64,000 nucleotides of DNA from Candidatus Sungiibacteriota bacterium (lineage in GTDB: Bacteria > Patescibacteriota > Minisyncoccia > Sungbacterales > JACQCQ01): contig JACQCQ010000012.1 of NCBI GenBank assembly GCA_016201505.1, positions 10,187-74,186 on the forward strand, written 5' to 3'. Positions 3,146-24,387 of the stretch are shown piece after piece; position 1 is the first letter of the stretch; each line of letters begins with the position of its first letter. The notes beneath the pieces are model-generated. The model did no database searches and had not been told where the DNA came from. It saw nothing but the letters and a program-made list of their open reading frames with translations. Both the position numbers and the translations under genes were made by a program.

Positions 3146-3160
3146 CTCGGGAATTTCCTA

Positions 3161-6416: not shown

Positions 6417-6521
6417 ATCCCGTTAGAAATTAAACTAAAGTTTGAAAGGGCACAGAAGATAGTACATAGAATATGCTTATAAGCCGAGCAAAAATTAAAT
6501 TAACCAATTTTCTAACGGGAT
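6417..6521. repeat. TIR-bounded element (13-nt terminal inverted repeat atcccgttagaa / ttctaacgggat), copy 1, abutting the comEC stop
   Basis: Perfect 13-bp terminal inverted repeats enclose about 80 nt of AT-rich sequence. The same TIR bounds two elements at 24014-24382. The 3' TIR overlaps the comEC stop codon (tca at 6521-6523). Confidence 0.55.
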
Positions 6522-7960
6522 CACTTAGGCCAATGTCGAGAAACGAGCCGCTGATAAAAATAAACGGAGGCGAATAAAAATGGAACCAGGCCGAAAGCCA
6601 GGGCATATGGCCCGGAAAGATTGAGCGAGGCGAAAGGAATTTTAGCGGTCAATGTAATCACACCGAGTTCATACGAAATCAGGACACGCGCCGCGAGGCC
6701 AACCAGAAACCCAAGCCAGGGGATGAGAATACCGACGGCCGCGGCGATAAAGCCAAACAACATGGTGAGCGGGATCAGGGGCAGAACGAGCAGATTCGTA
6801 ATGGGACTAATTAGTGAGACCACGCCGAAGTGCCAGGAGATGAGCGGCAAGACAAAAATTTCGGCCGAAAGCGTGGCGGCGACTGTACCACGCAAATCAA
6901 ATCCTGCGGGGATCCAGGCTAAGTATGGCTGAAGGATGGGAGTCATAATGACCAGTCCCAGTGTGGCTAAAAATGAAAGTTGAAAGGATAAATTAAAAAT
7001 GAGGAGCGAGGGATCAAGCGCCAGCATGCAAACCGCGGCGAATAAAAGCGCGTTCGTCATCTCGAAAATCCGGCCTCGGCTTTTGGCAAGGAGTCCCAGA
7101 AATCCCATGATGGCGGCGCGAACGCCGGAAGCACCGCCGGAGGCGATGAAAATAAATATTAAAATACCAAGTACCCCGCCGAGAAATCGTACCCGCGGAG
7201 AGGCGTGGAACCATAACAGGAGCCATGAAATTGAAATGGCCACAATCGTAATGTTGTAGCCGGAGAGGGCCACAATATGCGCGGTGCCGGTTTTTGAAAG
7301 CGCACCTTTCAGCGACGTCGGAAGAGAAGTTTTTTCACCGAGCAAAAGGCCGGCCATATACGCGGCAGCGGGTTCAGCAAAAATCGCATGCAGCGAACGC
7401 GTGAAGCGCTGACGGATCAAATCGGCGAGTCGAACAAATGACCAGCCGACGGATTTAACTTCAATAGTTTTAGGAAAATAAATTTCCGCTTGAGGACCGC
7501 CCGGCGAAGTATATTTTGCGGGAATATCTTTTAGTGTGCCACTCACCAAAATCTCATCGCCGCGCTGCAGTTCGGGAGCCGGAGACGAAACCAACAGAAT
7601 TTGAGCCGGTAACGATTCATCACGAACTGAAATGAGCGTTCGCTGTGCGGTGGCGGTTTTAGAGAGCGTATCCTGCACGGTCGCAAAAACGTGCACCGAC
7701 TTTGCCTCGATGCGAGCCGCCGGCAAAAAGGCAAAGTCGGCGCGCAGCGCTCCGAGAGAAAGCGCCAAAAGAAAAAATCCCAGCAGGATCAAACGGCGGC
7801 GGCGCAAAAATCCATCTATCAGTAAAAAGGCCGAAAGAACGAATGCGGCAAAGACTATGCTAAGAGAAATAAACCCAACTGACCCGATGCCAATGCCGCC
7901 AATAATCCCCGCAAATGTTGCGAGTCCGAGTCGCGAGGGAGAGATAATCAGACTATTCAT
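6521..7960 (-). CDS. comEC: ComEC/Rec2 family DNA internalisation channel (competence domain only; no beta-lactamase domain)
   Basis: Poly-TM protein with ...TAHIVALSGYNITIV..., similar to the ComEC THLLAVSGLH motif. The track ORF extends to 8065; start taken at the internal Met MNSLIISP. Confidence 0.75.
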   Translation of the reverse strand: MNSLIISPSRLGLATFAGIIGGIGIGSVGFISLSIVFAAFVLSAFLLIDGFLRRRRLILLGFFLLALSLGALRADFAFLPAARIEAKSVHVFATVQDTLSKTATAQRTLISVRDESLPAQILLVSSPAPELQRGDEILVSGTLKDIPAKYTSPGGPQAEIYFPKTIEVKSVGWSFVRLADLIRQRFTRSLHAIFAEPAAAYMAGLLLGEKTSLPTSLKGALSKTGTAHIVALSGYNITIVAISISWLLLWFHASPRVRFLGGVLGILIFIFIASGGASGVRAAIMGFLGLLAKSRGRIFEMTNALLFAAVCMLALDPSLLIFNLSFQLSFLATLGLVIMTPILQPYLAWIPAGFDLRGTVAATLSAEIFVLPLISWHFGVVSLISPITNLLVLPLIPLTMLFGFIAAAVGILIPWLGFLVGLAARVLISYELGVITLTAKIPFASLNLSGPYALAFGLVPFLFASVYFYQRLVSRHWPK

Positions 7961-8141
7961 AAAAACGGACAGAAGCGCAAAGCGCCACCTCAAGTAAGCC
8001 CCAAGCGAAGATACCTTTTCTCGAAACGCTCGTCCGACAAGCTGGCATGGTATTTGTCGAAGCAAATCAGCGAGGAGGACGGCGAGTATAAAAATCTCGC
8101 CGAGATTTTTATACGCTTTCGAAAAAGGTATCGAGCGTCTT

Positions 8142-8660
8142 TCAGTATTCTATCCCCCGCTTGCCTTTAATGCCCGCTTGATACGGATGCTTCACCTCTT
8201 TCATTTCAGTAATTAAATCGGCGCGTCGTATCACTTCTTTGTCTGCATCCCTGCCGGTCAAAACTAAATGCTTGTCTTTAGGGAACGCGTCAATAAATCG
8301 AAGCACACTCTCAAGCGAAATTAAATTAAGAGCGAGGGCATTGTTGATTTCATCTAAAATGAGCATATCCCAATTGGCTTCCTTTGTTTCTTTCTCCGCC
8401 ATGAGAAGAGCCTCACGAGCGGCAGTTTCATGCGCTTCTCGCGGCAGCGAGTCACCCAGGATGCCGACAAATCCCCTGCCCATTTTGCGCAACAGAAAAT
8501 TAGGCGCGAGTAATTTAGCTGACTCATCCTCGCCCGATTTCCAGGGGCCTTTGATAAACTGAATCATCAAAACTTTTTTCCCCTCACCGACCGCCCGCAA
8601 GGCTTGACCCAAGGCGGCGGTGGTTTTTCCTTTGCCGTTTCCAGTGTTTACGATGATCAT
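8142..8660 (-). CDS. btuR: cob(I)yrinic acid a,c-diamide / corrinoid adenosyltransferase (CobA/BtuR/CobO family)
   Basis: MIIVNTGNGKGKTTAALG P-loop and a 172-aa length typical of the CobA family. Confidence 0.85.
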   Translation of the reverse strand: MIIVNTGNGKGKTTAALGQALRAVGEGKKVLMIQFIKGPWKSGEDESAKLLAPNFLLRKMGRGFVGILGDSLPREAHETAAREALLMAEKETKEANWDMLILDEINNALALNLISLESVLRFIDAFPKDKHLVLTGRDADKEVIRRADLITEMKEVKHPYQAGIKGKRGIEY

Positions 8661-8908
8661 AATTTTAAACTAAAGGCGCGATCTGTATGAGATCACGCCC
8701 CTCCCAAGCCCGCCTAAATCTTTACCAAAAAAACTTAGGCGGACCAAGGAAATTTTTTATTTAAACAAAGCACAGAGCGTCACCTTGAGAAAGCCTCAAG
8801 CGAAGGATAGATTTTTCTTCATCGGGCTGGCGGCGGGATCATATGCCTAGCTCGCCTTGGCGAGCATCTAGCAATATAGGCGTGAAGAAAAATTTGTCCG
8901 AGCGTCCT

Positions 8909-11647
8909 TCAGCAGCCGCCGGAGGCCATCCCGCATTGCAGACACGTCTTGCAACTTCCGGTCTGCACCATCATGCCGCCGCACATCCGGCAGACCGTAT
9001 CGGAGAACACAATACGCACGTGAGATTTTTCAGCGGCGTGAATTTCATCCCTTATTTTCGTAATGGGTGCGAGCGTCGCCAGCGGTTCGCTCGCCGCCGC
9101 CTGGTGCTCTTCGGCTGTTCGAGTATCAATACCCAGTTCAAACCAACTCTCTTTCGGCAGAAATCGATAGGCCAGATAACGGAAAATATAATCGGTGATT
9201 GACAAAGCCACGGGAATATCGGGATTTTCGGTGACACCCGCCGGCTCATAGCGGCCGTAAATATATTTCGAAGCCAGCTCTTTTAATGGCACGCCATATC
9301 TCAGCGCAATCGAAATCGAGAGCGCGAATACGTCAAGCAGTCCGGCGAGCGTCGAGCCCTGCTTGGCAATGCGGATAAAAATTTCAGCCAGCGTCCCGTC
9401 TTCGAACATCGAATAGGTTAAATACCCATCGTGCCCGGCGATCGAGAACTTATGCGTTTCGGATTGCCTCGTCGTCGGGAGCGCCCTTTTTTGCGGCTCG
9501 AGTTTCAAGGTCTGCTGGCCGCCTTTACCCGAGATAGTGGCGAGAGGTTGAGCGCCTTTTGACCCGTCACGGTAGATGGCGAAGGCTTTAATCCCCATCT
9601 TCCAAGCCATGACATATGAGTCCATGATTTCTTCCGGTGTCGTTTCATACGGCATGTTAAATGTTTTGGAAATGGCGCCGGAAATAAATGACTGGGCAGC
9701 GGCCACGACGCGAACATGTCCTGGCCAGGCAATGGAACGCTTGCCGTTACCCGGAGCGACGGCCGCGTCAAAAATCGGGAGATGCGAATCTTTCAAATGC
9801 GGCGCGCCCTCAATCGTTCCTTTTTCTTCCACCCAATGAAGCATGTCTTCAATTTCGCCCGCCGAGTATCCCAGAGTTTTTAAGGCCCGCGGCACCACAC
9901 GATTTACAATCTTCATATACCCGCCGCCGACTAATTGCTTCATGGCGATATGGGCGAATACCGGTTCGATGCCCGTCGTGTCGCAGTCCATCATAAATGA
10001 AATCGTGCCGGTCGGCGCAATCACCGTCGCCTGCGCATTGCGAACGCCATACTGCTTCCCCAGTTTTACGGCCTCGTCCCAGACTTCTTTCGCCGCGCGA
10101 AAGACGTTCTGGTCATGGATTTTTTCTTTTTTAACTTTGGCCAGTTCCGCGCGATGCTTCTCAAGCACCCGCAGCATCGGTTTTTTGTTTATCTCAAATC
10201 CGGCGAACGGCCCCACCCGCGAGGCGAGCACCGCCGACTGCCGATAGGCTTCACCCGTCATAATGGCGGTTAATGCGCCTGTCCAGGCAACGGATTCTTC
10301 CGAATCATAGGCGTATCCCATCGACATCAGGAGTGCGCCGAGATTGGCATAGCCGAGGCCGAGTTGTCTAAAATCGTGCGTATTTTTAGCAATCGCTTCG
10401 GTCGGGTACGACGAGCCGTCCACCAGAATTTCTTGCGCCGAAATCATGATGCGAATGGTGTGGCGGTAGAGATCCGCATTAAAAGTGTTATCGTCGCGCA
10501 AATATTTCAGCAGATTAATCGAAGCCAAATTGCAGGCCGAATTATCAATGTGCTGATACTCGGCGCAGGGGTTGGTGGCGTTAATCCGGGCGGTATTGGC
10601 GGCGGTATTCCAGTCGTTGGCCGTATCGTCAAACATCATGCCGGGATCCCCCGAGCCCCAAGCGGCTTCGGCAATCAGCTGCATTAAGTCACGGGCGCGA
10701 TGGGTATCGGCAATTTCGCCCGTGGTGCGGTATTTCGTATGGAATTCGCCGTCAACTTCAAAAGCCCGCATGAATTCATCCGTGACACGCACCGAGTTAT
10801 TGGCATTCTGGTACTGAATCGAATTCCAGGCCTCATGATTTAAGTCAGCCATATCGTAACCCGCAGCCGACAGCGCCCGGACTTTCTTTTCTTCCTCGGC
10901 TTTGCTTTTTATAAATTCAACGATATCCGGATGATCAATATTTAAAATCACCATTTTGGCAGCCCTACGTGTGGTACCGCCCGACTTAATCATGCCGGCC
11001 ACCGAGTCCGCGCCGCGCATAAATGACATCGGCCCTGAACTGCGTCCGCCCTTGGATAAAGGCTCGCGGGATGATCGCAATTGAGATAGGTTCACGCCTG
11101 ACCCGGAACCCATTTTAAAAATCATGCCCTCGGTTCTAATCCACTCCAGAATGGATTCCATCGAGTCATCCACTTTCAAAATGAAACAGGCCGAACATTG
11201 CGGTTTTTCATAAATGCCGAGGTTAAACCAAACCGGCGAATTAAATGCGGCGTGCTGATGCAATAAAATGTAGGTCAGCTCATCGCCAAAAATTTTGGCT
11301 TCCTCTTTGCTTTTAAAATGTCCGAAAGACTGGCCCCAGCCGACAATGGTACGCACCACGCGATCAATTAATTGTTTTAAAGATTTTTCGCGGGTTGCCG
11401 TATCGGCTTTGCCTTTAAAATATTTTGTGACTGCAATTTGGACCGCGTTGTCCGACCAAAAATCAGGAAATTCATTTTCCGTTTCGACTGTGGTGCCATC
11501 GGCTTTCTTCATCGTCACTTTTTTCCAGACCCAACCGACTTCATCGTAGGGATGCGCGCCCTCTTTGGTATACACACGCAAAAAGCGCGCGGCGGGCAGG
11601 TCGAGTGAAGACCGATTTTCATCGGTGCGGACTTTAGTTTGGGGCAT
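8909..11647 (-). CDS. nrdJ: ribonucleoside-diphosphate/triphosphate reductase, class II (adenosylcobalamin-dependent)
   Basis: 912 aa with ...NPCAEYQHIDNSACNLASINL... active-site cysteine region and a C-terminal CxxC...CxxC tail. Long RNR alpha chain with no NrdAB/EF partner. Confidence 0.9.
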   Translation of the reverse strand: MPQTKVRTDENRSSLDLPAARFLRVYTKEGAHPYDEVGWVWKKVTMKKADGTTVETENEFPDFWSDNAVQIAVTKYFKGKADTATREKSLKQLIDRVVRTIVGWGQSFGHFKSKEEAKIFGDELTYILLHQHAAFNSPVWFNLGIYEKPQCSACFILKVDDSMESILEWIRTEGMIFKMGSGSGVNLSQLRSSREPLSKGGRSSGPMSFMRGADSVAGMIKSGGTTRRAAKMVILNIDHPDIVEFIKSKAEEEKKVRALSAAGYDMADLNHEAWNSIQYQNANNSVRVTDEFMRAFEVDGEFHTKYRTTGEIADTHRARDLMQLIAEAAWGSGDPGMMFDDTANDWNTAANTARINATNPCAEYQHIDNSACNLASINLLKYLRDDNTFNADLYRHTIRIMISAQEILVDGSSYPTEAIAKNTHDFRQLGLGYANLGALLMSMGYAYDSEESVAWTGALTAIMTGEAYRQSAVLASRVGPFAGFEINKKPMLRVLEKHRAELAKVKKEKIHDQNVFRAAKEVWDEAVKLGKQYGVRNAQATVIAPTGTISFMMDCDTTGIEPVFAHIAMKQLVGGGYMKIVNRVVPRALKTLGYSAGEIEDMLHWVEEKGTIEGAPHLKDSHLPIFDAAVAPGNGKRSIAWPGHVRVVAAAQSFISGAISKTFNMPYETTPEEIMDSYVMAWKMGIKAFAIYRDGSKGAQPLATISGKGGQQTLKLEPQKRALPTTRQSETHKFSIAGHDGYLTYSMFEDGTLAEIFIRIAKQGSTLAGLLDVFALSISIALRYGVPLKELASKYIYGRYEPAGVTENPDIPVALSITDYIFRYLAYRFLPKESWFELGIDTRTAEEHQAAASEPLATLAPITKIRDEIHAAEKSHVRIVFSDTVCRMCGGMMVQTGSCKTCLQCGMASGGC

Positions 11648-11943
11648 AGGTTAAAAATTCTGCAGTGGATACGATCCGGCGGGTATTTTTTAGATAAAAA
11701 AACACCATCAGGCGATGAGTCTTGATCTTCATCGAACAAAATTGGTGTGTCTCCATCATAATCGTGAATCTTTTTTCTTGAATCCGACCTTCCAAAAAAT
11801 TTGCGACTCGCCGAACCTACGACACGAACGCTTCACTGCCAACTGTAAAAGAATAATGAAAAGGTATAGGTATGATACGCCGATGACCCCGGCCGGCAAT
11901 CGGCCTTATCCACAGAAAAATTCATACAAGTATGAAAAATCTA

Positions 11944-11983
11944 GCTCCAAAACAAAAATACCCCGCCGCGGCGGGGTATTTTT
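11944..11983. terminator. rho-independent terminator downstream of ftsZ
   Basis: caaaaataccccgccgc ggcggggtatttttg, a perfect GC stem flanked by A-run and T-run. Confidence 0.75.
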
Positions 11984-11989
11984 GTTAAA

Positions 11990-13090
11990 TCACTTCTTTC
12001 TCCGCAAGAATGCCGGCACGGCGTCCCACTCGTCTTGTTTTTCTTCAGTCGCCTCTTGGCGCACCTCGCGTTTTTGCAAATCGGTGGCAAACATCGGCAT
12101 GCGGCGCATCTCGGCCTTCTCTTCGCGACGCGCCTCAGACGGAAAACCGGTGGCGATCACCGTAATCTTCACTTCTCCCTTCTTTAATCTCTCATCATGC
12201 ACCGCACCAAAGATGATTTTTGCCTCTTTGTCTACATTTTCTGTAATGACTTTGGCGGCGTCGTTAATTTCCCACATCGTAAGGTCCTGATTTCCCGCAA
12301 TATTGAATACCACACCCCGCGCACCATCAATTGACATATCGAGTAGGGGCGAATTGATGGCATTTTTGGCGGCCTCAACCGCGCGATCGTCTCCCGAGGC
12401 CGTCCCCACACCCATCAACGCCGAACCGGCGTCATGCAGTACTGCGCGAATGTCGGCAAAATCAAGATTTACAATTCCCGGCAACGTAATCAAATCCGAA
12501 ATTCCCTGAACGGCCTGTCGCAAAACTTCATCGCACATATCGAAGGCGGTCAGCAGCGAAGTCTCCCGCGTAATAATTTTTAACAAATTATCGTTCTTGA
12601 TGGTGATTAAGGCATCCACACGCTCTTTTAATTGAGCAATGCCTTCTTCCGCCACGCGCATTCTTTGCGCTCCTTCAAAAGCAAAGGGTGTCGTTGTCAC
12701 TCCAATCGTCAGTGCGCCCGACTGCTTGGCCACATCGGCGATGACCGGACCGCATCCGGTGAATGTTCCGCCGCCCATGCCGCCGACGACAAAAACCATG
12801 TCGGCTCCCTTCATGACTTCGTGAATCTCATCGCGATTTTCTTCTGCGGCTTGGCGGCCGCGATCCGGATCCATGCCGGTGCCAAGACCTCTGGTTAAAT
12901 TTTTTCCGATGTGGATTTTTTTATTGGCTTTGGTGTGATGCAAATCCTGCGCATCAGTATTAATCGCAATAAACTGAACGCCCTGCAGCTTATGCTCCAC
13001 CATGCGAGTCACGGCCTTGCCGCCGGAGCCTCCAGCTCCCACCACTTTAATACGGGCGGACGTCTCTAAATCTGGTTTTGTTTGTGGCAT
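11990..13090 (-). CDS. ftsZ: cell division GTPase FtsZ
   Basis: IKVVGAGGSGGKAV, FIAINTDAQDL, GGMGGGTFTG tubulin signature. Confidence 0.95.
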   Translation of the reverse strand: MPQTKPDLETSARIKVVGAGGSGGKAVTRMVEHKLQGVQFIAINTDAQDLHHTKANKKIHIGKNLTRGLGTGMDPDRGRQAAEENRDEIHEVMKGADMVFVVGGMGGGTFTGCGPVIADVAKQSGALTIGVTTTPFAFEGAQRMRVAEEGIAQLKERVDALITIKNDNLLKIITRETSLLTAFDMCDEVLRQAVQGISDLITLPGIVNLDFADIRAVLHDAGSALMGVGTASGDDRAVEAAKNAINSPLLDMSIDGARGVVFNIAGNQDLTMWEINDAAKVITENVDKEAKIIFGAVHDERLKKGEVKITVIATGFPSEARREEKAEMRRMPMFATDLQKREVRQEATEEKQDEWDAVPAFLRRKK

Positions 13091-13284
13091 ATAAAAAATA
13101 AAAGCCCCTTGACAGAGCCTGATAGAAGTTATCTGATATCGGCTCCGAAAGCCCTTTTCTCTGAATGCTAAAGATACCCCACCTTAGCACACCCGGCTTT
13201 ATGTCTGCAACGATCTCGGCGGTCATGCTCTATCTCTATATGAAGCCAAATCAAGCCGTTATCCACAAAAAAGTAACAGCCCAG

Positions 13285-14517
13285 CTAGGGAAATAACAGG
13301 CTGTAGAGCTTCTTTAACCATGAGGGAGCCCCGCCACCTTCCACGTCGGCCAGCGATAGGAGAGATTCACTGCTTTTTGTGCGTCTCCATTCGAGTAGTC
13401 CAATGGCGGTGGCCAGTTGTGCACGGTCTCGCTCATGGACATATTCGGAAAAACTCTTTAAATCGCCAAGCTCGCAGGGTAGATGCAACTCGCGTTTGGC
13501 AATCTGCAAAACACCAGGGATGCGCGACCCTCCGCCAATTAACACCGCGCCCGCCGGCAATAACTGTGTTTTATTTATTTTTTTAATTTCTTTATTGACT
13601 AATTCAAAAATATCGGAAAATCTGGCCTCAATAATTTCCGCAATCTCGCGGCGCGGAAATACGGCGTCATCTTCTGCGACGAATTCAGATAAGTGAATCG
13701 ATTCCTTTTTTGAAATTTCTTCGGGGATAGCGTGGCCGTATTTTAATTTAATCAATTCGGCAACATCCACGCGCGTCTGCAGGACGATGGCAATGTCATT
13801 GGTAATGTGCGCCGTGCCGTAGGGAAATCCGCCGGCATGCACCAACCTGCCTTCTTCAAAGACAGCGAAGTTTGTCGTCCCCCCGCCGATGTCAATTAAA
13901 ATGACGCCAAGTTCCTTCTGCCGTTTTGAGAGCACCGCGGCTGCCGAGGCGAGAGGAGAGAAAACAAATTCCGTAATTTTACATCCCGCCGCCTCGATGC
14001 ATTTTGATAAATTACGAATGGCAGAAACGGACGCATCAACAATCAAGGCGTCGACCTCAAGCCGCACGCCGTTCATGCCCACTGGATCTTTAATTCCGCC
14101 CTCATTATCAACCCGGAATTCTCTAGGGATAATATGCAAAATTTCTCGATTGGGATTTTTCGGAATAAAGGTCTCGGCGGCCGAAAGCACGCGCCGTACA
14201 TCTTCCTCCGAGACGTCGCCATCAGCCCGCGAAACAGCCACCACTCCGCGAGAAGAGGAAACCAAGAGATGCGGCCCGCCGATGGAAACAAAGCAAGACT
14301 TGGGGGACAGGCCAGCTTCTTTGGCAGCCTCATAGAGGGCCACTTTAATCGAGTGTCCGGCTTCATCTAGGTCAATCACCGCTCCCTTTCTGATACCGGC
14401 TGCCGGCGCAATGCCGATGCCTAAAATGCGCGGCGTCTCATCCGGCTTACATTCAGCAATCAGGGCATGCACCATCGACGTACCCACATCGAGGGCGAGA
14501 ACTATATCCCGTGGCAT
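13285..14517 (-). CDS. ftsA: cell division protein FtsA
   Basis: Actin-like ATPase: DVGTSMVHALIAE..., DIGGGTTNFAVF, LIGGGSRIPG. It lies upstream of ftsZ and ends with a TAG stop. Confidence 0.9.
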   Translation of the reverse strand: MPRDIVLALDVGTSMVHALIAECKPDETPRILGIGIAPAAGIRKGAVIDLDEAGHSIKVALYEAAKEAGLSPKSCFVSIGGPHLLVSSSRGVVAVSRADGDVSEEDVRRVLSAAETFIPKNPNREILHIIPREFRVDNEGGIKDPVGMNGVRLEVDALIVDASVSAIRNLSKCIEAAGCKITEFVFSPLASAAAVLSKRQKELGVILIDIGGGTTNFAVFEEGRLVHAGGFPYGTAHITNDIAIVLQTRVDVAELIKLKYGHAIPEEISKKESIHLSEFVAEDDAVFPRREIAEIIEARFSDIFELVNKEIKKINKTQLLPAGAVLIGGGSRIPGVLQIAKRELHLPCELGDLKSFSEYVHERDRAQLATAIGLLEWRRTKSSESLLSLADVEGGGAPSWLKKLYSLLFP

Positions 14518-14526
14518 AGCAGAAGT

Positions 14527-15015
14527 CTACGTCCGGCGGGCGAGAATCCGGTTTTCCAGCGCCTCCATCTGCTTTTTTCCCCGCGCCCCTCGCTCGTGGT
14601 CGTAGCCTAATGTATGCAGAATACCATGGAGCGTAGTCCAGAAGAACTGTTGATAAAAGCTATTTTTAAACTTTTCGGCGTCTGTTTTCACGACCGCGGG
14701 AGCAATCACCATATCTCCTAAGTCGATGGTGCTCGGTGATGACGCGATGGCTTTTTGATCTTTATATTCAGCAAAAGATAAAACGTTGGTTGGTTTTTTT
14801 ATACGGCGGTATGTTTTATTTAATTGTTGAATTTCTGAATTTTTAACGAGTGAAATGCTGATCAGAATCTTCTTTTTTTTATGTAAAAAATGGAACTCCG
14901 GTTCATGCGCCAGTTCGCGAAAAATTGATCGAGCCATGCGGCGCGCAGTACGCGCGAGTCCGGGATTTCGGCACCGGTCAAAAATAGCAGCCGAAATGAT
15001 CATGCTATATGCCAA
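14527..15015 (-). CDS. ybeY: rRNA maturation endoribonuclease YbeY
   Basis: HGILHTLGYDHE metal-binding motif. Confidence 0.85.
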   Translation of the reverse strand: MAYSMIISAAIFDRCRNPGLARTARRMARSIFRELAHEPEFHFLHKKKKILISISLVKNSEIQQLNKTYRRIKKPTNVLSFAEYKDQKAIASSPSTIDLGDMVIAPAVVKTDAEKFKNSFYQQFFWTTLHGILHTLGYDHERGARGKKQMEALENRILARRT

Positions 15016-15481: not shown

Positions 15482-15500
15482 GGAAAACCAAAAATCGGAA

Positions 15501-15737: not shown

Positions 15738-15765
15738 GAGTATTTTGTTCTTTGTATGCTGGTTT

Positions 15766-16122: not shown

Positions 16123-16217
16123 GCGTACATCATCGAATAACTAATCTTTTGCGAATATGCGAATTCGTTTATTCGTTTGAGATTCGAGATTCGCTGATAC
16201 TTATCACTAATAGCGTA

Positions 16218-17534
16218 TCACTTCTTCAATCTCTTTTTAAGTAAATCGATCAACTTATCCTGCGGAATAATTTCCTGAATGCCCGAATCCATTTCACGCA
16301 CCATCACCGTCCCGTCGATGGCTTCTTTTTGGCCGATAATCAGTCCAATCTCGGCCGAAACTTTTTGCGACAGGTGCAGCTGGGATTTAATACTATCTTT
16401 CCCGAGCGATTCATAAACCAGAATACCGGCTTTCCTAAGCTCTTCCATCAAAGATAAACTTTTTCTTTTCGCCAAGTCACCTAACTGAATTAAAATCACT
16501 TTCGGCTTGCTCGTATTAATCACCCGAATGCCCCGCTCGCGGATAACCTGCATGACGCGCTGAATGCCGATGGTCCCGCCGACTGCTGGCGTCGGAACGC
16601 CGCCCAATGTCTCAATTAAATCATCATACCGGCCGCCCGAGCCGATGGCCAAAACTTCTGAATCTTTGCGCGGCTCTTGGGCGTTCGGATCTTCAGCCAC
16701 AAATATTTCAAACAGCGTCCGGGTGTAATAATCAACGCCCTTTACCAAATATGGATTTAAAATATAGGGAATCTTGGACTCATCCAGAAATTCAAGTACC
16801 TGTTTAAAATGCGATTTACAGGGTTGGCATAAGTGATCAATGATGTTGGGTGCCTGTTCCTTTAAAATCGCGCACTTTTCATCGCGGCATTCGAGTACTT
16901 TTAACGGATTGTCTTTTAACTTGACACGACAGGAGCGGCAGATTTTAGCGACTTTGGGCCGATAATAATTGCCGAGCTGCGCTCGGATGATGCCCCGGCA
17001 TTCGCGGCATCCCAGACTGTTGATATGGATGAAAATATCGCGGATGCCGATTTCGGCCAGCAAAACAAACAGCACCTGCATGATGGTCGCATCTCCCACT
17101 GGCGATCCTTCGCCCAGCATTTCAAGCCCCCATTGATGAAATTCACGAAACCAGCCGCGCTCGATGACATCGTGCCGGAACATGGAACCTTGATAGGTCA
17201 ATTTCACCGGCTGCGGCAAATGGGCGAAATCATTTTGAATATACGATCGCGCCGCCGAAATACGCGCATCGGGTCGCAACGATAAGGTTTCGCCGTCTTT
17301 GGTCTTTAAAATGTAGAGCTGTTTTTTGGCGAGATCGCTTCTCTTGCCTAAGCCGGTAAGAAACAGCGCCGGATCTTCGATATGGGGAAACTCGACATGC
17401 TCAAAACCATAGAATTGAGAAATGGCTCTCGCCATCGACATAATACGATCCCACAGCCGCACGTCATCACCGTAAAAATCTTTGGTCCCGCGAAGCGCCA
17501 GAAATTCCTTTTGTTTTTTTGCGGATTGCGCCAT
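16218..17534 (-). CDS. hisS: histidyl-tRNA synthetase
   Basis: Class II aaRS with the HisRS N-terminus (LRGTKDFYGDD, GFEHVEFPHIE, RYDDL...) and a C-terminal anticodon-binding domain. Confidence 0.95.
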   Translation of the reverse strand: MAQSAKKQKEFLALRGTKDFYGDDVRLWDRIMSMARAISQFYGFEHVEFPHIEDPALFLTGLGKRSDLAKKQLYILKTKDGETLSLRPDARISAARSYIQNDFAHLPQPVKLTYQGSMFRHDVIERGWFREFHQWGLEMLGEGSPVGDATIMQVLFVLLAEIGIRDIFIHINSLGCRECRGIIRAQLGNYYRPKVAKICRSCRVKLKDNPLKVLECRDEKCAILKEQAPNIIDHLCQPCKSHFKQVLEFLDESKIPYILNPYLVKGVDYYTRTLFEIFVAEDPNAQEPRKDSEVLAIGSGGRYDDLIETLGGVPTPAVGGTIGIQRVMQVIRERGIRVINTSKPKVILIQLGDLAKRKSLSLMEELRKAGILVYESLGKDSIKSQLHLSQKVSAEIGLIIGQKEAIDGTVMVREMDSGIQEIIPQDKLIDLLKKRLKK

Positions 17535-17537
17535 AAA

Positions 17538-18125
17538 TTAATAAGCAGGCGTATGCACCAGGCCGGCTTCAGAAACAGGCCAGGCGCGAAGCGCCGCGCG
17601 GCCGGTAATTAAATCTCCGGGTAACACGCCCCATTTTCGCGAATCGAGTGAAAATGTTCGATTATCGCCCATCACGAAATATTGATCTGGGCCAAGCGTT
17701 ATTGAAGTCAAATCGCTGATGGTCGAAAGCCCCTTCGGCAAATACGGCTCACCCAACTCTTTGGGCACCCTGGATCCCGGCTCGGTAATAAAAACTTTCC
17801 CGCCGGCAATCGTTACGGTTTCCCCGGGCAGACCAATCACGCGTTTAATAAAATACTGCGACTCATCAAGCGGGAATTTAAACACAACCACATCGCCTCG
17901 CGCGGGCGCGTGCAGATGATAGCTCAACTCATCAATGATCAAGTAATTGCTCTCCTGAAAATTCGGCTCCATCGAGGCACCTTTTACAATAAACGGCTGG
18001 GCAACGAAATAGCGAATGGGAATCACAATCACCACCGCCACAATCAAAATTTTTACAAAATCCCAGGCTTCGCGAACTACACTTTTCCCATTCGAGGCCG
18101 CTTCTTCAGGCTCTTTTTCATCCAT
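17538..18125 (-). CDS. lepB: signal peptidase I
   Basis: GASMEPNF (Ser box), FIKRVIGLPGETV, GDNRTFSLDSR. Confidence 0.85.
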   Translation of the reverse strand: MDEKEPEEAASNGKSVVREAWDFVKILIVAVVIVIPIRYFVAQPFIVKGASMEPNFQESNYLIIDELSYHLHAPARGDVVVFKFPLDESQYFIKRVIGLPGETVTIAGGKVFITEPGSRVPKELGEPYLPKGLSTISDLTSITLGPDQYFVMGDNRTFSLDSRKWGVLPGDLITGRAALRAWPVSEAGLVHTPAY

Positions 18126-18435
18126 ACCCGGTCAGTGAAACCCAGCAGTAGAGCATATGCTCACCACTGGGCAAGCTTCAAATTATGATTAAATAAGTAT
18201 TTACACCCCGGCGTGAGAAGCGAAGCCCAGTATGATACGAAGTATTCGTGCTGGGGTTTCCCTGCCGGGCATAAAATCTAAAGGATAAGCTATAGTAACC
18301 CGAAAATGGCCTCATTTCAAGCCCCAGGGCAGAAATAAGAAGCAGGAATGAGGCATTAAGACGGCGGCACGAAACGCGTATTTTCTATTATTTGTTCTTC
18401 CTTGTTTCTTATACTTTATTCTTTATTCTTAATTC

Positions 18436-19047
18436 ATGATTCTTTTAATTGGCCTAGGGAATCCCGGCAAGGCTTACGAAGGAACACGGCATAATGTGGG
18501 CCGCGAAATTGTTTTGGCCTTCGCTAAAAAGCATGAGGTCAACGCCTTCGCCCCGCATAAAAAAATAAAGGGACTTGTGACTGAATGCAAGATTCAAAAA
18601 GAAAATTACGCTTTGGTTCTGCCGGAAACGTTTATGAACAAATCCGGCCAAGCCGCTAAAGAGGCCAAGCTGGTTTTTAAAACGGAACCCGAAAAAATTT
18701 TTGTGGTGCATGATGATGCCGATATTGAGTTGGGGCGCACCAAACTCCTATTCGGCCGCGATTCGGCGGGACATAAAGGTGTTGAATCCGTGATGCGGGC
18801 GCTCGCCACCAAAGACTTTTGGCGCTTTCGCATCGGTATTGGCGGGGAAAGACCAAGACTGGAACTGGACCTTAGGCGAAGATCAGGTAAAAAAATAAAA
18901 CACGTCGCCGCCGAGTCCCTTGTCTTAAAAAAATTCTCGCCGGCCGAAGAAGCGCTGATGAAAAAAGTCCGCGCTAAAACCATCGGGGCGCTTGGCGATC
19001 TTGCCAATACCCCGCCCGAGCATGTAATGAATCACTATAACAAGTGA
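18436..19047 (+). CDS. pth: peptidyl-tRNA hydrolase
   Basis: MILLIGLGNPGKAYEGTRHNVG..., the Pth N-terminal signature. Confidence 0.9.
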   Translation: MILLIGLGNPGKAYEGTRHNVGREIVLAFAKKHEVNAFAPHKKIKGLVTECKIQKENYALVLPETFMNKSGQAAKEAKLVFKTEPEKIFVVHDDADIELGRTKLLFGRDSAGHKGVESVMRALATKDFWRFRIGIGGERPRLELDLRRRSGKKIKHVAAESLVLKKFSPAEEALMKKVRAKTIGALGDLANTPPEHVMNHYNK

Positions 19048-19243
19048 GGTTGTAAAAGATTTAATATATGAAACAGAATTCTAAATCCTTAGCATGTAAC
19101 CCTTTCGAAGCTTCGAGCGTAGGAGGGTCATGAACCACTATAATAAGTAAGAGCCACCTCCTGCCACCTGATCCGCGACTGTTGGTCAGTCTTCGATGAA
19201 ATAATGGGAAGAAAGCTTCTACTAAGTTAAATAAGTTAAAAAC

Positions 19244-19279
19244 ATACCCTATCCCACGCTATAGCGTGGGATAGGGTAT
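19244..19279. repeat. 16-bp perfect palindrome ataccctatcccacgc tata gcgtgggatagggtat (core cgctatagcg)
   Basis: Perfect inverted repeat in the pth-mfd spacer. On the minus strand it is followed by TTTTT, giving terminator geometry. A related palindrome, tctacgctatagcgtaga, occurs at 61323-61340. Confidence 0.5.
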
Positions 19280-19440
19280 GCCGTCTCGATTTGGTAAATC
19301 ACGCCCGCTTATCCCCGCCACCGATTAAGAGATCGCTGGCTTCTGATCTTTTGAGAAAGTGACGTGAGTAAAAAGACTCTCACTACTTGCCTAATCGGTT
19401 TGCCATGGGCTAATGTATTAAGGCGGCCGAATGATGGTCA

Positions 19441-21441
19441 ATGAACGAAATTAAGGAGTTACAAACAGTTCTGATCGCGGCAGTCACCCCCACTTTTTTA
19501 GAACGGGGGGGTTTGTGGTTCGCTGAAAACGAAGAAAAGATTCTACGTGCCGCCAAATCTCAAGCCTGGTGGGGCGATCACATTTTGGTCCTCGAAAAAG
19601 ATCGCGAGATGAAACTCTCTAGGCTCGCTCGCCGGCTCACCGATCTGGGATATCAAAAAACACATGCCATCGTCTCGCCGGGCGAATTCTCGCAACTCGG
19701 CGACACGCTCCGCATTGCCGCAATCAACTACGAAACCATTGTCCGCATCGAATTCTTGGGAAACAAGATTGAGCGCATTGAAAGAGAAGCGTTCCGCGTC
19801 GAACCGCAACCCTTAAAACCAAAAGACAAACGACATCAATTTCGCGAGGGCGACTACGTGGTTCATTTAGACCACGGCATCGGCATCTACAAAGGTGAAA
19901 TCCGAAATCCTAAATCCGAAGCACGAAATAAATCTGAAGCACAAAATTCAGAAAATCTAGAATTTGGGGATTTGAATTTAGAGCTTTACCACGTAGTGGA
20001 ATACGCGCCGCCGCGAAAAGGAGGCGCTCCCGATCGACTGCTGGTTCCACTTGATCAGGAGAAAAAATTATCACTGTATATCGGATTTGATCGCCCGACT
20101 ATTCACCGACTTGGCGGGACAGTGTGGTTTACCACAAAAAGAAAACTGCGCGAATCAGCCGAGAATTTCGCGCGTGAATTGCTCAAAATTTATGCCGCGC
20201 GCGAAGGGGTAACGCGTCCGCCGTTTTACGGCGACCCGACAATCGAACAAGCCTTTGCTGACGCCTTCCCCTTTGTCGAGACTCTCTCGCAGTCGCGCGC
20301 CATTGATGAAATTTTGCGTGATCTCGAAAAACCGACCCCCATGGACCGCGTCCTCGTCGGCGATGTCGGATTTGGCAAGACTGAAGTCGCGATGCGGGCG
20401 GCACTCCGTGTTGTGCTCTCCGGCAAACAGGTGGCACTTCTTGCCCCCACCACCATTCTCGCCGATCAGCACGAGCGCACGTTTAAAGAGCGATTCAAGG
20501 ATCTTCCTATCACTATCAACTCGCTCTCACGACTAACACCCAAAAACGAGGCAAAGCATATCGTTGAAAAAGTAAATCAGGGAGCCGTTGATATTTTTAT
20601 CGGTACGCATCGCATCTTATCAAAAGATATCGTCTTACTGAAACTCGGGATGCTGATCATCGATGAGGAACAGAAATTTGGTGTCTTACATAAAGAACAC
20701 TTTAAAAAGTTGCGCTCGGAAATTGATATTCTATCGATTTCGGCAACCCCGATTCCCCGGACGCTTTCGCTCACCATGGCGAATCTGCGATCCATCTCTG
20801 AAGTGAACGACCCGCCGCCCGAGCGTGTGGCCGTTAAAAATTTCGTCCTGCCCTACCGCGACTCGATTGTAAAAGAAGCCATCGAAGCAGAATTAAAACG
20901 AAAGGGCCAAGTCTATCTACTCCACAATCGAGTCGAGACGATTGGCTCGGCTGCGCGATTGCTGCAAGCATTAATTCCCCAGGTTTCGATCGGCGTGATC
21001 CACGGCCGTATGGATGAGCCTGCGCTGATTAAAACGCTGGCCGAATTCAGAAATAAGAAAATTGATATTTTGGTGGCCACAACCATCATCGAAAACGGAC
21101 TCGATTTTTCAAACGTAAATACATTGGTGGTGGAAAACGCCACGCGGCTCGGGCTTGCCCAAAGCTATCAAATCCGCGGCCGCATTGGGAGAAGCGACCG
21201 TGCGGCCTACGCCTACTTTTTGTACCCTGCCCAACATCTAACGCCGGAGGCGCGTGAGCGACTCGAAACACTTGAATCATTTGAAGCGCTCGGCTCGGGC
21301 TACCAAATCGCGCTCCGCGATCTCGAGATGCGCGGCGCCGGCGCAATCCTTGGTAAAGATCAATCCGGCGCCATTCAAAAAGGCGGACTTAATTTATACT
21401 GTCAGCTCTTGGCTGAAGCATTGGAGGTACTGAAATCATAA
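19441..21441 (+). CDS. mfd: Mfd-like transcription-repair coupling factor, short form (RNAP-interacting plus SF2 translocase modules only)
   Basis: DEAD/RecG-like helicase motifs (VGDVGFGKTEVAMRAA; LIIDEEQKFGV; SATPIPRTL), then the TRCF C-terminal domain. At 666 aa it lacks the UvrB-homology N-terminal domains, and it carries a low-complexity insert (KSEARNKSEAQNSENLEFGD). Confidence 0.75.
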   Translation: MNEIKELQTVLIAAVTPTFLERGGLWFAENEEKILRAAKSQAWWGDHILVLEKDREMKLSRLARRLTDLGYQKTHAIVSPGEFSQLGDTLRIAAINYETIVRIEFLGNKIERIEREAFRVEPQPLKPKDKRHQFREGDYVVHLDHGIGIYKGEIRNPKSEARNKSEAQNSENLEFGDLNLELYHVVEYAPPRKGGAPDRLLVPLDQEKKLSLYIGFDRPTIHRLGGTVWFTTKRKLRESAENFARELLKIYAAREGVTRPPFYGDPTIEQAFADAFPFVETLSQSRAIDEILRDLEKPTPMDRVLVGDVGFGKTEVAMRAALRVVLSGKQVALLAPTTILADQHERTFKERFKDLPITINSLSRLTPKNEAKHIVEKVNQGAVDIFIGTHRILSKDIVLLKLGMLIIDEEQKFGVLHKEHFKKLRSEIDILSISATPIPRTLSLTMANLRSISEVNDPPPERVAVKNFVLPYRDSIVKEAIEAELKRKGQVYLLHNRVETIGSAARLLQALIPQVSIGVIHGRMDEPALIKTLAEFRNKKIDILVATTIIENGLDFSNVNTLVVENATRLGLAQSYQIRGRIGRSDRAAYAYFLYPAQHLTPEARERLETLESFEALGSGYQIALRDLEMRGAGAILGKDQSGAIQKGGLNLYCQLLAEALEVLKS

Positions 21442-21508
21442 TTGACGCCCGCGGAATCATACGGTACTAATATCCCAGGCGGTTCACTAACAACAGAGGA
21501 GGATCATC

Positions 21509-22285
21509 ATGCTACATTCGCCGATCTTTATAGCCCAGGATAACATGGAACTCTCGGCCTCTGTGGATCTCGTTTCCAAGCTCAAAGGTCATCATGCGGC
21601 CGGTTTCAAGGTCAACGACTTCTGGGACAACTACGGCCGCGCAGGCCTGGAAAAGCTTCGTGAAGCAGGAGCATACGAGCTTTGGGTCGATGTCAAAGTA
21701 AAAGATACCCCGAACACCGTCGCAAACCGCATCGCGAGCATTTCGCAAGCTGGCGTCAGCTACATCACCGTCATGGCGGATGGTGAAGTTGACATGATGA
21801 TGGGGGCCGTCAAAGCAAGAACTGACTTTCTGAAGAAAGAAGCTATATCGCTCGACATCGACGGGGATGGCATACCAGCCATAGGCCCGGGCATCATTGC
21901 TGTGACAGTCCTCACCTCACTCACCGAAGAGCAGACTCACCTGACATACGGGCAGCCGGTGAAAGCCGCGGCTCTCTATCTCGCGCGGCTCGCAAAACTG
22001 TCAGGCATCGATATCATTGTCTGCTCCCCCCAGGAAGTCAGCTTGCTTTCGAAGCGTCCCGAACTGTCTGGCATGAGTTTCTTCACCCCTGGCATTCGTC
22101 CAACTTGGAAAAAACCAACCGACCAGAAGCGAATCGATACGCCGCGCGCCGCTATATTGGCGGGAGTCACAAGCATCGTTGTCGGCCGAGCTATCACCGA
22201 GGCCCAAGATCCGGTAGCGGCATTCGATGTCATCTACAAAGAGGTGGGACTTGCGCTTCGCGAGCGGCAAAGAGGTAGGTCATGA
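21509..22285 (+). CDS. pyrF: orotidine 5'-phosphate decarboxylase
   Basis: VDVKVKDTPNTV and VGRAI motifs, with the catalytic K/D pattern of OMPdecase. Confidence 0.85.
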   Translation: MLHSPIFIAQDNMELSASVDLVSKLKGHHAAGFKVNDFWDNYGRAGLEKLREAGAYELWVDVKVKDTPNTVANRIASISQAGVSYITVMADGEVDMMMGAVKARTDFLKKEAISLDIDGDGIPAIGPGIIAVTVLTSLTEEQTHLTYGQPVKAAALYLARLAKLSGIDIIVCSPQEVSLLSKRPELSGMSFFTPGIRPTWKKPTDQKRIDTPRAAILAGVTSIVVGRAITEAQDPVAAFDVIYKEVGLALRERQRGRS

Positions 22286-22917
22286 GCCAAATGACTGAAT
22301 CAGAGGTGCTCAAGCTCTACAAGTCGAAAGATGCGGTCTAGTTCTTCAACTACGATGGAGACCAAGCGGCGCCTCACGCGCTTCTCACATCGGGGAAGCA
22401 TTCCGACGGATACATCAACTCGACTCCGGTGCTACAGGACCCGCAGTCGGTCTTAATGCTGGCGGATGCACTTTCGTACAAAGTGAAAGCAGTCGTCGCG
22501 TATGCCGACTGGATCGTTGGCTCGCCGATGGCGGCGATCACGCTCTCCTTCAAGCTCGCCGAGATCATGGAAACATCTCACGGTTTCGCCGAAAAAGACG
22601 GCGAGCGGATGAAGTTCAAGCGCTTCGTCATCCCGCGGCACTCGACAGTTCTGCGTTGTGAAGAGCTCATCACCACCTCGAAGACAACCGAACAGGTGGC
22701 GGAGGCGATCGAGCGCGACAACCCCCATCGCGTGACGATTCTCGGCCAGGTGGCAACGGCCATCTGGAGACCGGAAATGAATGACAAAAGACGCTGGGAG
22801 CCGATTTACCTGGCCAGATGGATCGTCCGAAACTGGGATGCCGCAGACTGCGCGCTCTGCAAACAGGGGTCATCGGCTTTGAAGCCGAAGGAGCATTGGA
22901 GAGAGTTCGCACGATGA
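22282..22917 (+). pseudogene. pyrE: orotate phosphoribosyltransferase-like gene interrupted by an in-frame TAG at 22339-22341
   Basis: ATG at 22282 (ATGA overlap with the pyrF stop) encodes MSQMTESEVLKLYKSKDAV, then TAG. The same frame continues as FFNYDGDQAAPHALLTSGKHSDGYINSTPVLQD...ML ADALSYKV..., which aligns with the OPRTase N-terminus on both sides of the stop. Confidence 0.55.
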
Positions 22918-22986
22918 CCGGCATAGCCCGCGGAGTTTTAAGAAAACTCCGCGGGCTGTATTTTTTTCATGCTAGAGTAAACCTTA

Positions 22987-24009
22987 ATGGACAAATCGAT
23001 CACGTATCTTCACGCCTTGCATCTCGCCGGAAAAGGAGAACCGAAAACGCTTTTAAAAAATTTGGGGCAGTATGATTCGCCCGAAGCCGCCTGGGAACAT
23101 TTAAAAGTTGCGACAATTAATCCAGACGATGAATTTAAAAAATTGGAACGGCTCGACATTTGGGCGATATCCAAAGACTCGCTGCACTATCCCCCGCTAC
23201 TTAGAGAAACCCATGACGCACCGGTAATTTTATACGGCCGCGGCGTGATAGATCCCGATCAATTTTTCCTGGCCATGGTGGGAACGAGAAAACCGACCGA
23301 ATACGGCAAAACCGTGGCCAAAAATTTTGCCGCGGATTTTGCGCAAGCCGGTATTAGCATCGTCTCCGGCGGGGCTTACGGCATCGATAAGGAGTCGCAC
23401 GCTGGAGCCTTACGATCCGGCGGCAAAACGATCATGGTCATCGGCTCGGGACTGGACAGGGCATCGTTTTATCCCGGCGCCCATTGGAACTTAGCCGAGG
23501 AGATTGTACAAAACGGCGGCGCCGTTATTTCCGAGTACCCGCCTGGCACAAAAGTTTTGCAGCATCACTTTCCCGAACGAAACCGCATCATCGCCGGCAT
23601 GTCACGCGGTCTCATCGTGGTCGAAGCCCAGATGAAAAGCGGGGCTTCGATTACCGCGCGGCTCGCAGTATCGGAAAATCGCGACGTGTTTGTCGTCCCA
23701 GGGTCAATTTACTCACCAACTTCAGACCTTCCCAACTCGCTATTAAAGGAGGGTGCTGCGCCTCTCCTAGCGCCTAGCGACTTGCTTGAGGCTTATGGCT
23801 TTAAGTTGCTGGCCGAAGCCAAAGGCGAGACGTTCGGCGAGTTTGAGACTGTTATAATAGAAGCGCTGCGAAATCCCTGTACGCTGGATGATCTTTCCAG
23901 AGAAGTTAAGGGCGGAATTCATGCGCTCCAGTCTTCATTAACGGCACTCGAACTGGCCGGGAAAATTATGGAAATCGAGCCTGGAAGGTACCAAGTAATA
24001 GGATCATAA
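22987..24009 (+). CDS. dprA: DNA processing protein DprA (Smf)
   Basis: Rossmann-like DprA core: MVGTRKPTEYG...GISIVSGGAYGIDKESHAGAL...GSGLD...ERNRIIAG. Confidence 0.85.
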   Translation: MDKSITYLHALHLAGKGEPKTLLKNLGQYDSPEAAWEHLKVATINPDDEFKKLERLDIWAISKDSLHYPPLLRETHDAPVILYGRGVIDPDQFFLAMVGTRKPTEYGKTVAKNFAADFAQAGISIVSGGAYGIDKESHAGALRSGGKTIMVIGSGLDRASFYPGAHWNLAEEIVQNGGAVISEYPPGTKVLQHHFPERNRIIAGMSRGLIVVEAQMKSGASITARLAVSENRDVFVVPGSIYSPTSDLPNSLLKEGAAPLLAPSDLLEAYGFKLLAEAKGETFGEFETVIIEALRNPCTLDDLSREVKGGIHALQSSLTALELAGKIMEIEPGRYQVIGS

Positions 24010-24013
24010 TTTG

Positions 24014-24177
24014 ATCCCGTTAGAGGCAGACCTGCCTGCCGGTCGCATGTCGCCAAAGGCTATGGCCGACGGAGCGCAGGCAGGATCGCGATCGAGCATG
24101 AATTCATATATGATTCGTACTTATAAATATCTTCACATCTTTTCGCACAATTTCGCGATCGCGGCCTCTAACGGGAT
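24014..24177. repeat. TIR-bounded element, copy 2 (164 bp)
   Basis: Bounded by atcccgttagagg ... cctctaacgggat. The 5' 80 nt form a GC-rich hairpin module, and the 3' half is AT-rich. Confidence 0.55.
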
Positions 24178-24211
24178 TGACAATGTATTGTATCCTGTGA
24201 TTAGTAGTATT

Positions 24212-24382
24212 GTCCCGTTAGAAGCAGACCCGCCTGCCGGTCGCACGTCGCCAAAGGCTATGGCCGACGGAGCGCAGGCAGGATCGCGATCATTCGCGTT
24301 TTCTTTGAAATTAATCTATTCATTTTTAAAAACCTCGTAACATTGAAAATCTCGTACTTGCGATCGCGGCTTCTAACGGGAT
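24212..24382. repeat. TIR-bounded element, copy 3 (171 bp), ending 5 nt before the topA ATG
   Basis: Bounded by gtcccgttagaag ... cttctaacgggat. Its first 80 nt are about 95% identical to copy 2, and its 3' half differs. Confidence 0.55.
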
Positions 24383-24387
24383 GAATT

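Follow-up and report, generated by a model that had tools for sequence, protein, structure and literature searches.

Short hairpin-forming, MITE-like repeats at start codons of Patescibacteria, with three copies beside comEC, dprA and topA of a Sungiibacteriota genome

The 64,000-nucleotide stretch of a Candidatus Sungiibacteriota genome analysed here as a whole (GenBank assembly GCA_016201505.1, contig JACQCQ010000012.1, positions 10,187 to 74,186; hereafter the window) contains homologues of the competence genes comEC and dprA, with topA located directly behind dprA. Three short repeats with inverted termini lie at these genes, one next to the comEC stop codon and two in the dprA-topA spacer. 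A sequence-only reading had located them at 6417-6521, 24014-24177 and 24212-24382, and all three are indeed present there: TCTAACGGGAT with at most one mismatch occurs six times in the window as compared to 0.67 expected, none of 100 shuffles reaches six, and the six matches always form inward-facing pairs. Relaxed matching within the window did not reveal any copy beyond these three. We consider the three repeats very probably to be copies of a short, non-coding, hairpin-forming family across Patescibacteria, which resembles transposable elements of the miniature inverted-repeat type (MITEs), mostly rebuilds the start codon at its insertion site and is predicted to be translated through. Patescibacteria constitute a large share of bacterial diversity and have tiny, densely packed genomes that are thought to be poor in mobile elements. 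No published description of such an element family was found in full-text literature searches, motif included, and it apparently represents an undescribed, phylum-wide variant of the MITE theme.

Elements and genes in the window

Table 1. Coordinates of the three elements and of the features next to them in the window
Feature	Position	Strand	Remarks
Copy 1	6418-6520	-	Short class, 103 nt, without subterminal hairpin; termini TCCCGTTAGA / TCTAACGGGA with covarying extension
TCAA, left flank of copy 1	6414-6417		Pairs with right flank TCAC (6521-6524); 3/4 target duplication
comEC-like gene	6521-8065	-	Competence domain and DUF4131; stop TGA (6521-6523) abuts copy 1
dprA	22987-24009	+	Open reading frame (ORF) and domain match
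Chain of open frames bridging dprA-topA	24011-24384	+	TTG ORF 24011-24340, then TTG ORF 24343-24384
TTGA, left half of perfect 4-bp duplication of copy 2	24011-24014		Right half 24177-24180
Copy 2	24015-24176	-	Long class, 'GCAGATCGCGATC...GCGATCGCGGC' subtype; nested GC-rich hairpin
Nested GC-rich hairpin CCTGCCTGCC...GGCAGGCAGG in copy 2	24031-24084		Same module in copy 3 at 24229-24282
Promoter-like block TTGACA-N15-TGATTAGTA before topA	24177-24206	+	Alignment with three other Sungbacteria
Copy 3	24213-24381	-	Same subtype as copy 2; between promoter-like block and topA ATG
topA	24388-26490	+	Also directly behind family members in relatives' loci L004 and L012

The inverted repeat bounding the three copies, described earlier as 13 nt long, is real, but its outermost A...T belongs to the flanking duplicated target rather than to the element, and copy 3 has a G there. 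A repeat of 13 nt is apparent because a 10-nt invariant terminus (TCCCGTTAGA) is followed by three covarying pairs. Predicted folding of the three copies beats that of shuffled sequences, with values of -73.2 kcal/mol (z -6.1), -67.3 kcal/mol (z -5.3) and about -26 kcal/mol (z -3.2). Copy 1 is of the same subfamily (extension AAAATTAA...) as a folD-associated copy from another Sungbacteria lineage (L122:19059-19163), and its polarity was assigned from this similarity. On the minus strand the flanks of copy 1 are GTGA and TTGA, i.e. AAG[TGA]-element-T[TGA]CC, with the GTGA copy holding the comEC stop TGA; of the overlap with the comEC stop codon that had been proposed, only the abutment stands, since any overlap is limited to a flank base. 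The comEC homologue comprises 514 amino acids from the first possible start and matches only the two domains of Table 1, with no metallo-beta-lactamase domain detected in it. Beside copy 1, a minus-strand ORF of 39 codons with a hydrophobic C-terminal half (6298-6417) starts at a TTG in the duplicated flank, and a stem-loop GACCGACC-TAAA-TCGGTCGG lies directly after the element in this region.

Copies 2 and 3 share a module measured at 79 nt with 96% identity, in agreement with the earlier estimate of about 80 nt and about 95%, and their other halves differ from each other. A GC-rich hairpin of 54 nt is inserted into their 'GCAGATCGCGATC...GCGATCGCGGC' subtype, and both copies have the minority orientation relative to topA. 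Copy 2 sits in the TTGA of the putative topA -35 box, where the right duplicate of its target supplies the TTGA of the promoter-like block and the duplication restores TTGACA. Copy 3 lies between the putative -10 box and the topA ATG, which had been placed 5 nt after an element end at 24382; this placement agrees with ours, 6 nt after the last element base at 24381. Copy 3 is without a clean duplication (flanks ATTG / TGAA), and at its place in the Sungbacteria locus L124 a remnant, CCCCGTTAAGAAGCC, is found. The DprA protein is 100% identical to a 'Candidatus Sungbacteria' protein at NCBI from a metagenome-assembled genome (MAG), with the next relative at only 56%. Short-read contigs encoding the identical DprA end 69 nt past its stop, within the module that copies 2 and 3 have in common. 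Because independent contigs break within this shared module, and the other halves of the two copies differ, the copies constitute a genuine repeat and an assembly duplication is ruled out.

Two open frames span the 378-nt dprA-topA spacer, leaving gaps of only 1, 2 and 3 nt between dprA, the frames and topA, and the 109-codon open run at 24011-24340 has a P of about 0.03 against block shuffles. This is only suggestive of translation being relayed across the dprA-topA spacer as well.

Insertion signature and distribution of the family

Relatives were collected by scanning one genome per GTDB species for ATCCCGTTAGA followed by 83-143 nt and TCTAACGGGAT, which yielded at least 119 loci. The family statistics below are drawn from these listed loci and comprise about 140 copies (142-146 depending on the measure), and L-numbers designate loci of relatives retrieved for comparison, among which L122, L124 and L126 represent Sungbacteria lineages. 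The listed loci come nearly all from Patescibacteria (Saccharibacteria, lineages of Paceibacteria/Parcubacteria, Levyibacteriota and Kerfeldbacteria), with a few in MAGs labelled Omnitrophota, WOR-3, Sedimentisphaerales (Planctomycetota) or Gammaproteobacteria. The pair of termini had no match in 2.9 million viral contigs. The window, compared with Rfam at the gathering threshold, gave only a transfer-messenger RNA and two tRNAs and no family matching the elements, and permissive Rfam scans gave chance-level matches only. The scan pattern fixes the A...T flank bases and the 83-143-nt spacing, and the 10-nt termini are perfect in 142/142 copies by requirement of the search. Not subject to these constraints are the inner bases of the duplication, the ATG's G (present in 84/92 oriented copies) and an independent sample of 32 copies taken from metagenome contigs.

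Read in the direction of the gene, the layout is ...ATGNN-T-CCCGTTAGA...TCTAACGGG-ATGNN-gene, in which the element is flanked by a 4-bp target duplication of the form T-N-N-A. A T at flank position -4 together with an A at +4 is found in 110/142 copies, and [AGT]TG..T on the left combined with ATG on the right is seen in 118/146. In 96 of 104 copies the left and right flanks agree at both variable bases (z about 12), and matches number 226 of 245 as compared to 173 +/- 4.3 when flanks are re-paired. Target-site duplications, whose presence the sequence-only reading had proposed as a check, are thus found, including TTGA/TTGA at copy 2. They also occur away from ATG (TAAA, TTGA and TCAA, the last flanking an element with CCCC..GGGG termini as TCAA/TCAA), and a perfect 4-bp duplication is present in 20/32 copies of the independent metagenome sample.

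Orthologous sites with and without an element are also found. The folD site is empty in L124, CCAA[TGAA]TCTTTTTGACGG, and occupied in L122, GCCA[TGAA]-105-nt element-[TGAA]TCTCTTTGACGG, and in both FolD begins with MNLFDGK. In the window this site is unoccupied, with glyA and folD overlapping in GTGA and folD starting with GTG (33625-33640, minus strand). At the topA locus, all Sungbacteria examined share the block TTGACA-N15-TG(G/A)TTAGTA, a probable topA promoter whose -10 region is unusual (window 24177-24206, L122:11150-11190, L124:6245-6275, L126:10863-10895). The dprA-topA spacer is empty in L126/L127, ...AATT[TGA]CATG, where in the window two TTGA enclose copy 2, and decayed copies of a different subfamily are present in L122 and L124 at the same junction. 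With empty, occupied and decayed states at this junction, elements evidently insert and degrade, and one site can receive an insertion more than once. In L126/L127 (10905-11030) the gap between promoter block and topA, the equivalent place of copy 3, is taken up by another kind of hairpin, about 120 nt long and with arms AACCGTCTTTTCAAAAACG / CGTTTTGAAAAGAGGTT, which may be another element family in the same niche.

The copies are dispersed: the 64-kb window has three, and many loci contain 2-4 within 8-21 kb. Tandem copies split by exactly one shared TGAA, some of them nested, were seen at L062:5472-5712, L017:7673-7896, L014:5898-6280, L030:3211-3380 and L061:1170-1280; a rebuilt target site is evidently hit again. 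The family is thus short and non-coding with inverted termini, a duplication of fixed length, occupied and empty orthologous sites and several dispersed copies, as MITEs are, and the earlier description as MITE-like, with conserved termini and variable interior, is strengthened by the target duplications, the empty sites and the hundreds of relatives. Mobilisation would be due to a transposase with a stagger of 4 bp.

The element proper is [T/C]CCCGTTAGA...TCTAACGGG[A/G], or in symmetric reading TCCCGTTAGA...TCTAACGGGA, with the first 10 nt from either end invariant, partly by construction of the search. Stem positions 11-13 vary yet remain 92-96% Watson-Crick with 3-4 pair types each, and terminus variants are compensated on both arms (CCCC...GGGG and TCACGTTAGA...TCTAACGTGA). 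Sizes are about 100-125 bp (100-170 bp when the window copies are included), with clusters at about 105-108 and 118-123 nt. The long class carries, on the gene-proximal side, a subterminal hairpin of 5-9 bp with a single unpaired T between it and the 13-bp outer stem; 47 copies have this hairpin in perfect form, with 31 distinct stems, mostly AC-GG...CC-T, and in a variant arrangement the same 3' hairpin arm pairs with a partner beside the other terminus. No such hairpin is present in the short class, to which copy 1 belongs. In 62 copies the hairpin end is directed towards the gene, and in four it points away, and the interiors are asymmetric as well, with an A-rich sense strand, GGGA in 49 sense as compared to eight antisense interiors, and ATGAAA in 17 as compared to one.

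Such folding raises the alternative that the elements are not mobile at all and are host-encoded structured RNA parts of 5' or 3' untranslated regions, such as stabilisers, RNase processing sites or translational switches. The strong predicted folding, the covariation of outer stem and subterminal hairpin, the pairing of the start codon's A and U in the stem and the preservation of structure while interiors diverge would all suit such RNAs. However, fixed host parts would account poorly for 4-bp duplications with clean empty sites, for decay of copies at an orthologous site in related genomes, for tandem and nested copies or for neighbouring genes that are mutually unrelated, and the elements show neither an Rfam match nor a clear G.U bias on the sense strand. 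We therefore regard this alternative as unlikely, and a secondary role at the RNA level may have been acquired after insertion.

Palindromes of the nested hairpin of copies 2 and 3 recur elsewhere. The bare 20-nt palindrome CCTGCCTGCCGGCAGGCAGG, which forms its stem, occurs alone in other loci of the candidate phyla radiation (CPR), and the GC-rich palindrome CCTGCCTGCCGG(C/T)AGGCAGG is found in unrelated CPR genomes (L004:2446, L057:3681 and 4449, L122:4960, L040:5199) and is nested with a larger loop in the window copies (24031-24084, 24229-24282). The GC-rich palindrome may constitute a second small family of palindromic repeats.

Start codons, proposed read-through and rival explanations

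About 80% of copies lie in a start codon, in the arrangement A-TGNA...element...A-TGNA-gene, and hence the typical position of the family is the start codon and not the gene end, as the window copies had suggested. The ATG is rebuilt because the terminal A of the element is joined to the duplicated TG, and the old ATG is left upstream as a remnant. That the rebuilt ATG is the real start is seen from the canonical N-termini of TopA (MKLVIVESPAK), MurG (MKILLTGGGTGGH), PheT (MKISLNWL), TypA, GlyS, L17, L9, RRF, Adk, FolD and others. The 123 directly downstream genes are a sample of the core genome (pheT, pilC, topA, murG, typA, glyS, ribosomal protein genes, folD and others) with functions in translation, cell wall, DNA topology, glycolysis and more. 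Some genes recur across lineages: pheT and pilC four times each, topA twice in addition to the window, and murG twice; the two murG loci have syntenic flanks with 66-68% identity and element subfamilies that differ. A -10-like hexamer is found 4-9 nt before the remnant ATG in 47/98 copies as compared to 15% at random positions, and a Shine-Dalgarno-like motif in 11%, the same as at random; many targets, about half, therefore look leaderless. About 40% of targets lie directly behind another gene.

The remnant ATG opens the frame ATG NNT CCC GTT AGA (M-x-P-V-R), which continues through the whole element in 37/100 canonical copies, as compared to 4 and 0 for the other two sense frames, 15 for elements flipped in silico, and 9.7 +/- 2.8 (maximum 18) for shuffled interiors. 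Its stop is a TAA in the right terminus (TTC TAA CGG G ATG) that precedes the rebuilt ATG by 4 nt, or else a TGA that overlaps this ATG. When internal ATGs are also counted, an ATG-started ORF of at least 10 codons ending at the terminal stops is present in 62/100 copies as compared to 23 +/- 4 after shuffling. Element lengths modulo 3 are distributed 48/27/25 (p = 0.008), favouring the phase that uses the TAA, and the remnant-ATG frame is open in 6/18 copies of the independent metagenome sample. The encoded peptides are not conserved past the residues encoded by the terminus, and selection is on openness of the frame and not on a protein. Presence of a -10 box upstream was not associated with the upstream ORF being open (p = 0.51).

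Taken together, a mechanism can be envisaged in which translation would begin at the old ATG or at an internal one and proceed across the element, the stem sequestering the new AUG would be melted in the process, and ribosomes, after terminating on the new AUG or 4 nt ahead of it, would re-initiate on the gene. Insertion into an essential, often leaderless gene without a Shine-Dalgarno sequence would be nearly harmless as a result of such read-through and re-initiation, which would also explain the fixed orientation of the elements.

Several observations weigh against the interpretation as mobile elements that are read through. None of the three window copies occupies a start codon; they lie at T-N-N-A sites which are non-canonical but still harmless, and a read-through ORF is found in only 37-62% of copies. 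Using a crude scan, -10-like hexamers within elements were found on both strands alike (63 versus 68 of 91 elements), and an internal promoter is unsupported for this reason. Interiors are hardly more similar within a genome than between genomes (median 0.61 versus 0.58), unlike in a recent MITE burst, with exceptions in L065 (0.98), L072 (0.96) and the window pair (0.78). That the termini covary indicates selection for a hairpin formed by one strand of DNA or RNA, of which a classical double-strand transposase has no need; this covariation, together with mostly diverged interiors in the same genome, argues that the folded single strand matters beyond plain cut-and-paste. At the same time, G.U and A.C mismatches on the sense strand number 13 and 9, a bias too small to prove selection at the RNA level. 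The target consensus and the length range are partly ascertained by the flanks and spacing imposed in the scan. Finally, about 1 Mb of retrieved loci, where unpaired termini are truncations or chance matches, yielded neither an autonomous copy nor a transposase, and in a search reaching element lengths of 600 bp no autonomous element was found among 23 metagenome loci with terminus pairs spaced by 517-577 nt, which are mostly two ordinary elements flanking one small gene and include at least one chance match (L141). Such element-gene-element units, within about 590 nt and with a gene of about 130-165 codons, occur at L128, L132, L142, L143, L150 and others.

A bolder, rather doubtful extension is that of a 'translation-riding' transposon, whereby the host promoter and start codon would drive an ORF into the left end (M-x-P-V-R...), encoding the transposase in a putative autonomous member, and the stop in the right end with the A of the new ATG would return the ribosome to the host gene. 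If this were true, such elements could settle without lethality at start codons of leaderless and essential genes, in the bacteria whose genes are packed most densely.

With perfect 13-bp inverted repeats around about 95 bp of AT-rich DNA that carries -10-like hexamers directly upstream of genes, the elements could also be imagined as invertible promoter switches (invertons), in which the interior is flipped by a site-specific recombinase and the downstream gene is thereby switched. The repeats could owe their continued identity to recombination with each other, and a minority of copies, including copies 2 and 3, are indeed oppositely oriented. We consider such switches very improbable, since target duplications and empty sites indicate insertion, the downstream genes are essential housekeeping genes, the hexamers are as common on either strand, the open frame is anchored on an external ATG and no recombinase gene was seen in the annotated loci of relatives. 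Least credible of all is a binding site for a competence-linked regulator or nuclease, which was suggested by two of the three window copies touching comEC and dprA and by pilC or pilB behind the element in 5/123 other loci, since the 123 downstream genes are of diverse, housekeeping function with enrichment near competence genes largely absent, and the dprA-side copy actually lies in the probable topA promoter and is absent or decayed in Sungbacteria with the same dprA-topA synteny. Proximity of the window copies to comEC and dprA is a coincidence, and a tempting lead towards a competence-linked motif is thereby removed as false.

Well over a hundred species-level genomes carry the MITE-like family, whose members occupy start codons of core genes, among them topA, pheT, murG and those for ribosomal proteins. 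If read-through with re-initiation holds true, it would constitute a new mode of coexistence between transposon and host. Practically, the elements could serve as a marker for leaderless gene starts in CPR bacteria and, in Saccharibacteria, which have newly become tractable, as an 'insulated' insertion cassette that is both natural and portable, and they explain contig breaks and mis-called starts in MAGs.

Other repeats and RNA genes were also noted in the window. TATTCTCATATTCTTGAGAATATGAGAATAAA occurs twice, 306 nt apart (28803-28834, 29109-29140), a ATTCGTTTATTCGTTT-type repeat is found at three places (592-628, 1030-1065, 16163-16199), and a perfect 21-bp palindrome lies downstream of position 3145 (3158-3201). 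The window's sole Rfam matches are to a standard one-piece transfer-messenger RNA (54111-54531) and two tRNA genes (30058-30141, 3513-3583).

Comparison with known systems

Some known classes share single traits with the family and were rejected. CRISPR, already excluded from the sequence alone, a DNA-uptake sequence and an operator pair were considered and discarded. REP/BIME elements and REPINs, with their RAYT transposases, are likewise intergenic hairpin repeats whose structure is kept by compensatory change, and a REP/BIME-type element had been offered as an alternative. However, REPs are 20-40 nt long with a GTAG head, are without target duplication and are species-specific; this does not fit the elements described here, whose termini differ and which have a 4-bp duplication, and membership in REP or REPIN was rejected. 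Integron attC sites (57-141 nt) are similar in that GTTAGA / TCTAAC hexamers form the outer stem around a variable interior. Their core polarity is 5'-RYYYAAC...GTTRRRY-3', while every copy here reads 5'-GTTAGA...TCTAAC-3' on both strands, so that the 5' arm is GTTAGA in place of RYYYAAC; in addition, cassette arrays are lacking and the flanks are duplicated. The earlier exclusion of attC is hence upheld.

A closer parallel exists with the Correia elements (NEMIS/CREE) of Neisseria and the ERIC/IRU elements of enterobacteria, which are also non-coding, about 100-150 bp long, bounded by terminal inverted repeats and dispersed beside genes. Correia and ERIC/IRU elements are transcribed together with their neighbours, form long hairpins and may bring expression signals with them. 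For Correia elements the duplication is TA and the range is one genus, unlike the family described here with its T-N-N-A duplication, phylum-level spread and start-codon site. To our knowledge, neither rebuilding of the ATG, nor a read-through frame, nor siting in start codons has been described for Correia or ERIC elements. Rickettsia palindromic elements (RPEs) are comparable as small palindromic mobile elements of reduced genomes that are compatible with translation, but RPEs insert in frame and join the protein, whereas the elements here provide a separate upstream ORF ending 4 nt before the ATG.

With regard to mobilisation, likeness to piggyBac and IS1380 is seen in the 4-bp duplication of T-N-N-A type (TTAA for piggyBac), in termini beginning with CCC and in sites that can look untouched. 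The piggyBac terminus, CCCTAGAAAG, bears a short resemblance to (T)CCCGTTAGAAA here, and this provides a lead and not evidence of membership. IS1380 transposases have been used as prokaryotic outgroup of piggyBac (PMC10813416). The family described here differs in that no transposase was found for it in the retrieved loci, among the spaced terminus pairs or in the viral contigs.

By analogy, the family may be likened to the introner elements of eukaryotes, although these have hosts of another domain and what they recreate is a splice site in place of a start and a stop codon. Introners are also MITE-like, and in both cases the end of the element together with the target duplication would recreate a signal needed by the host, so that the insertion is tolerated.

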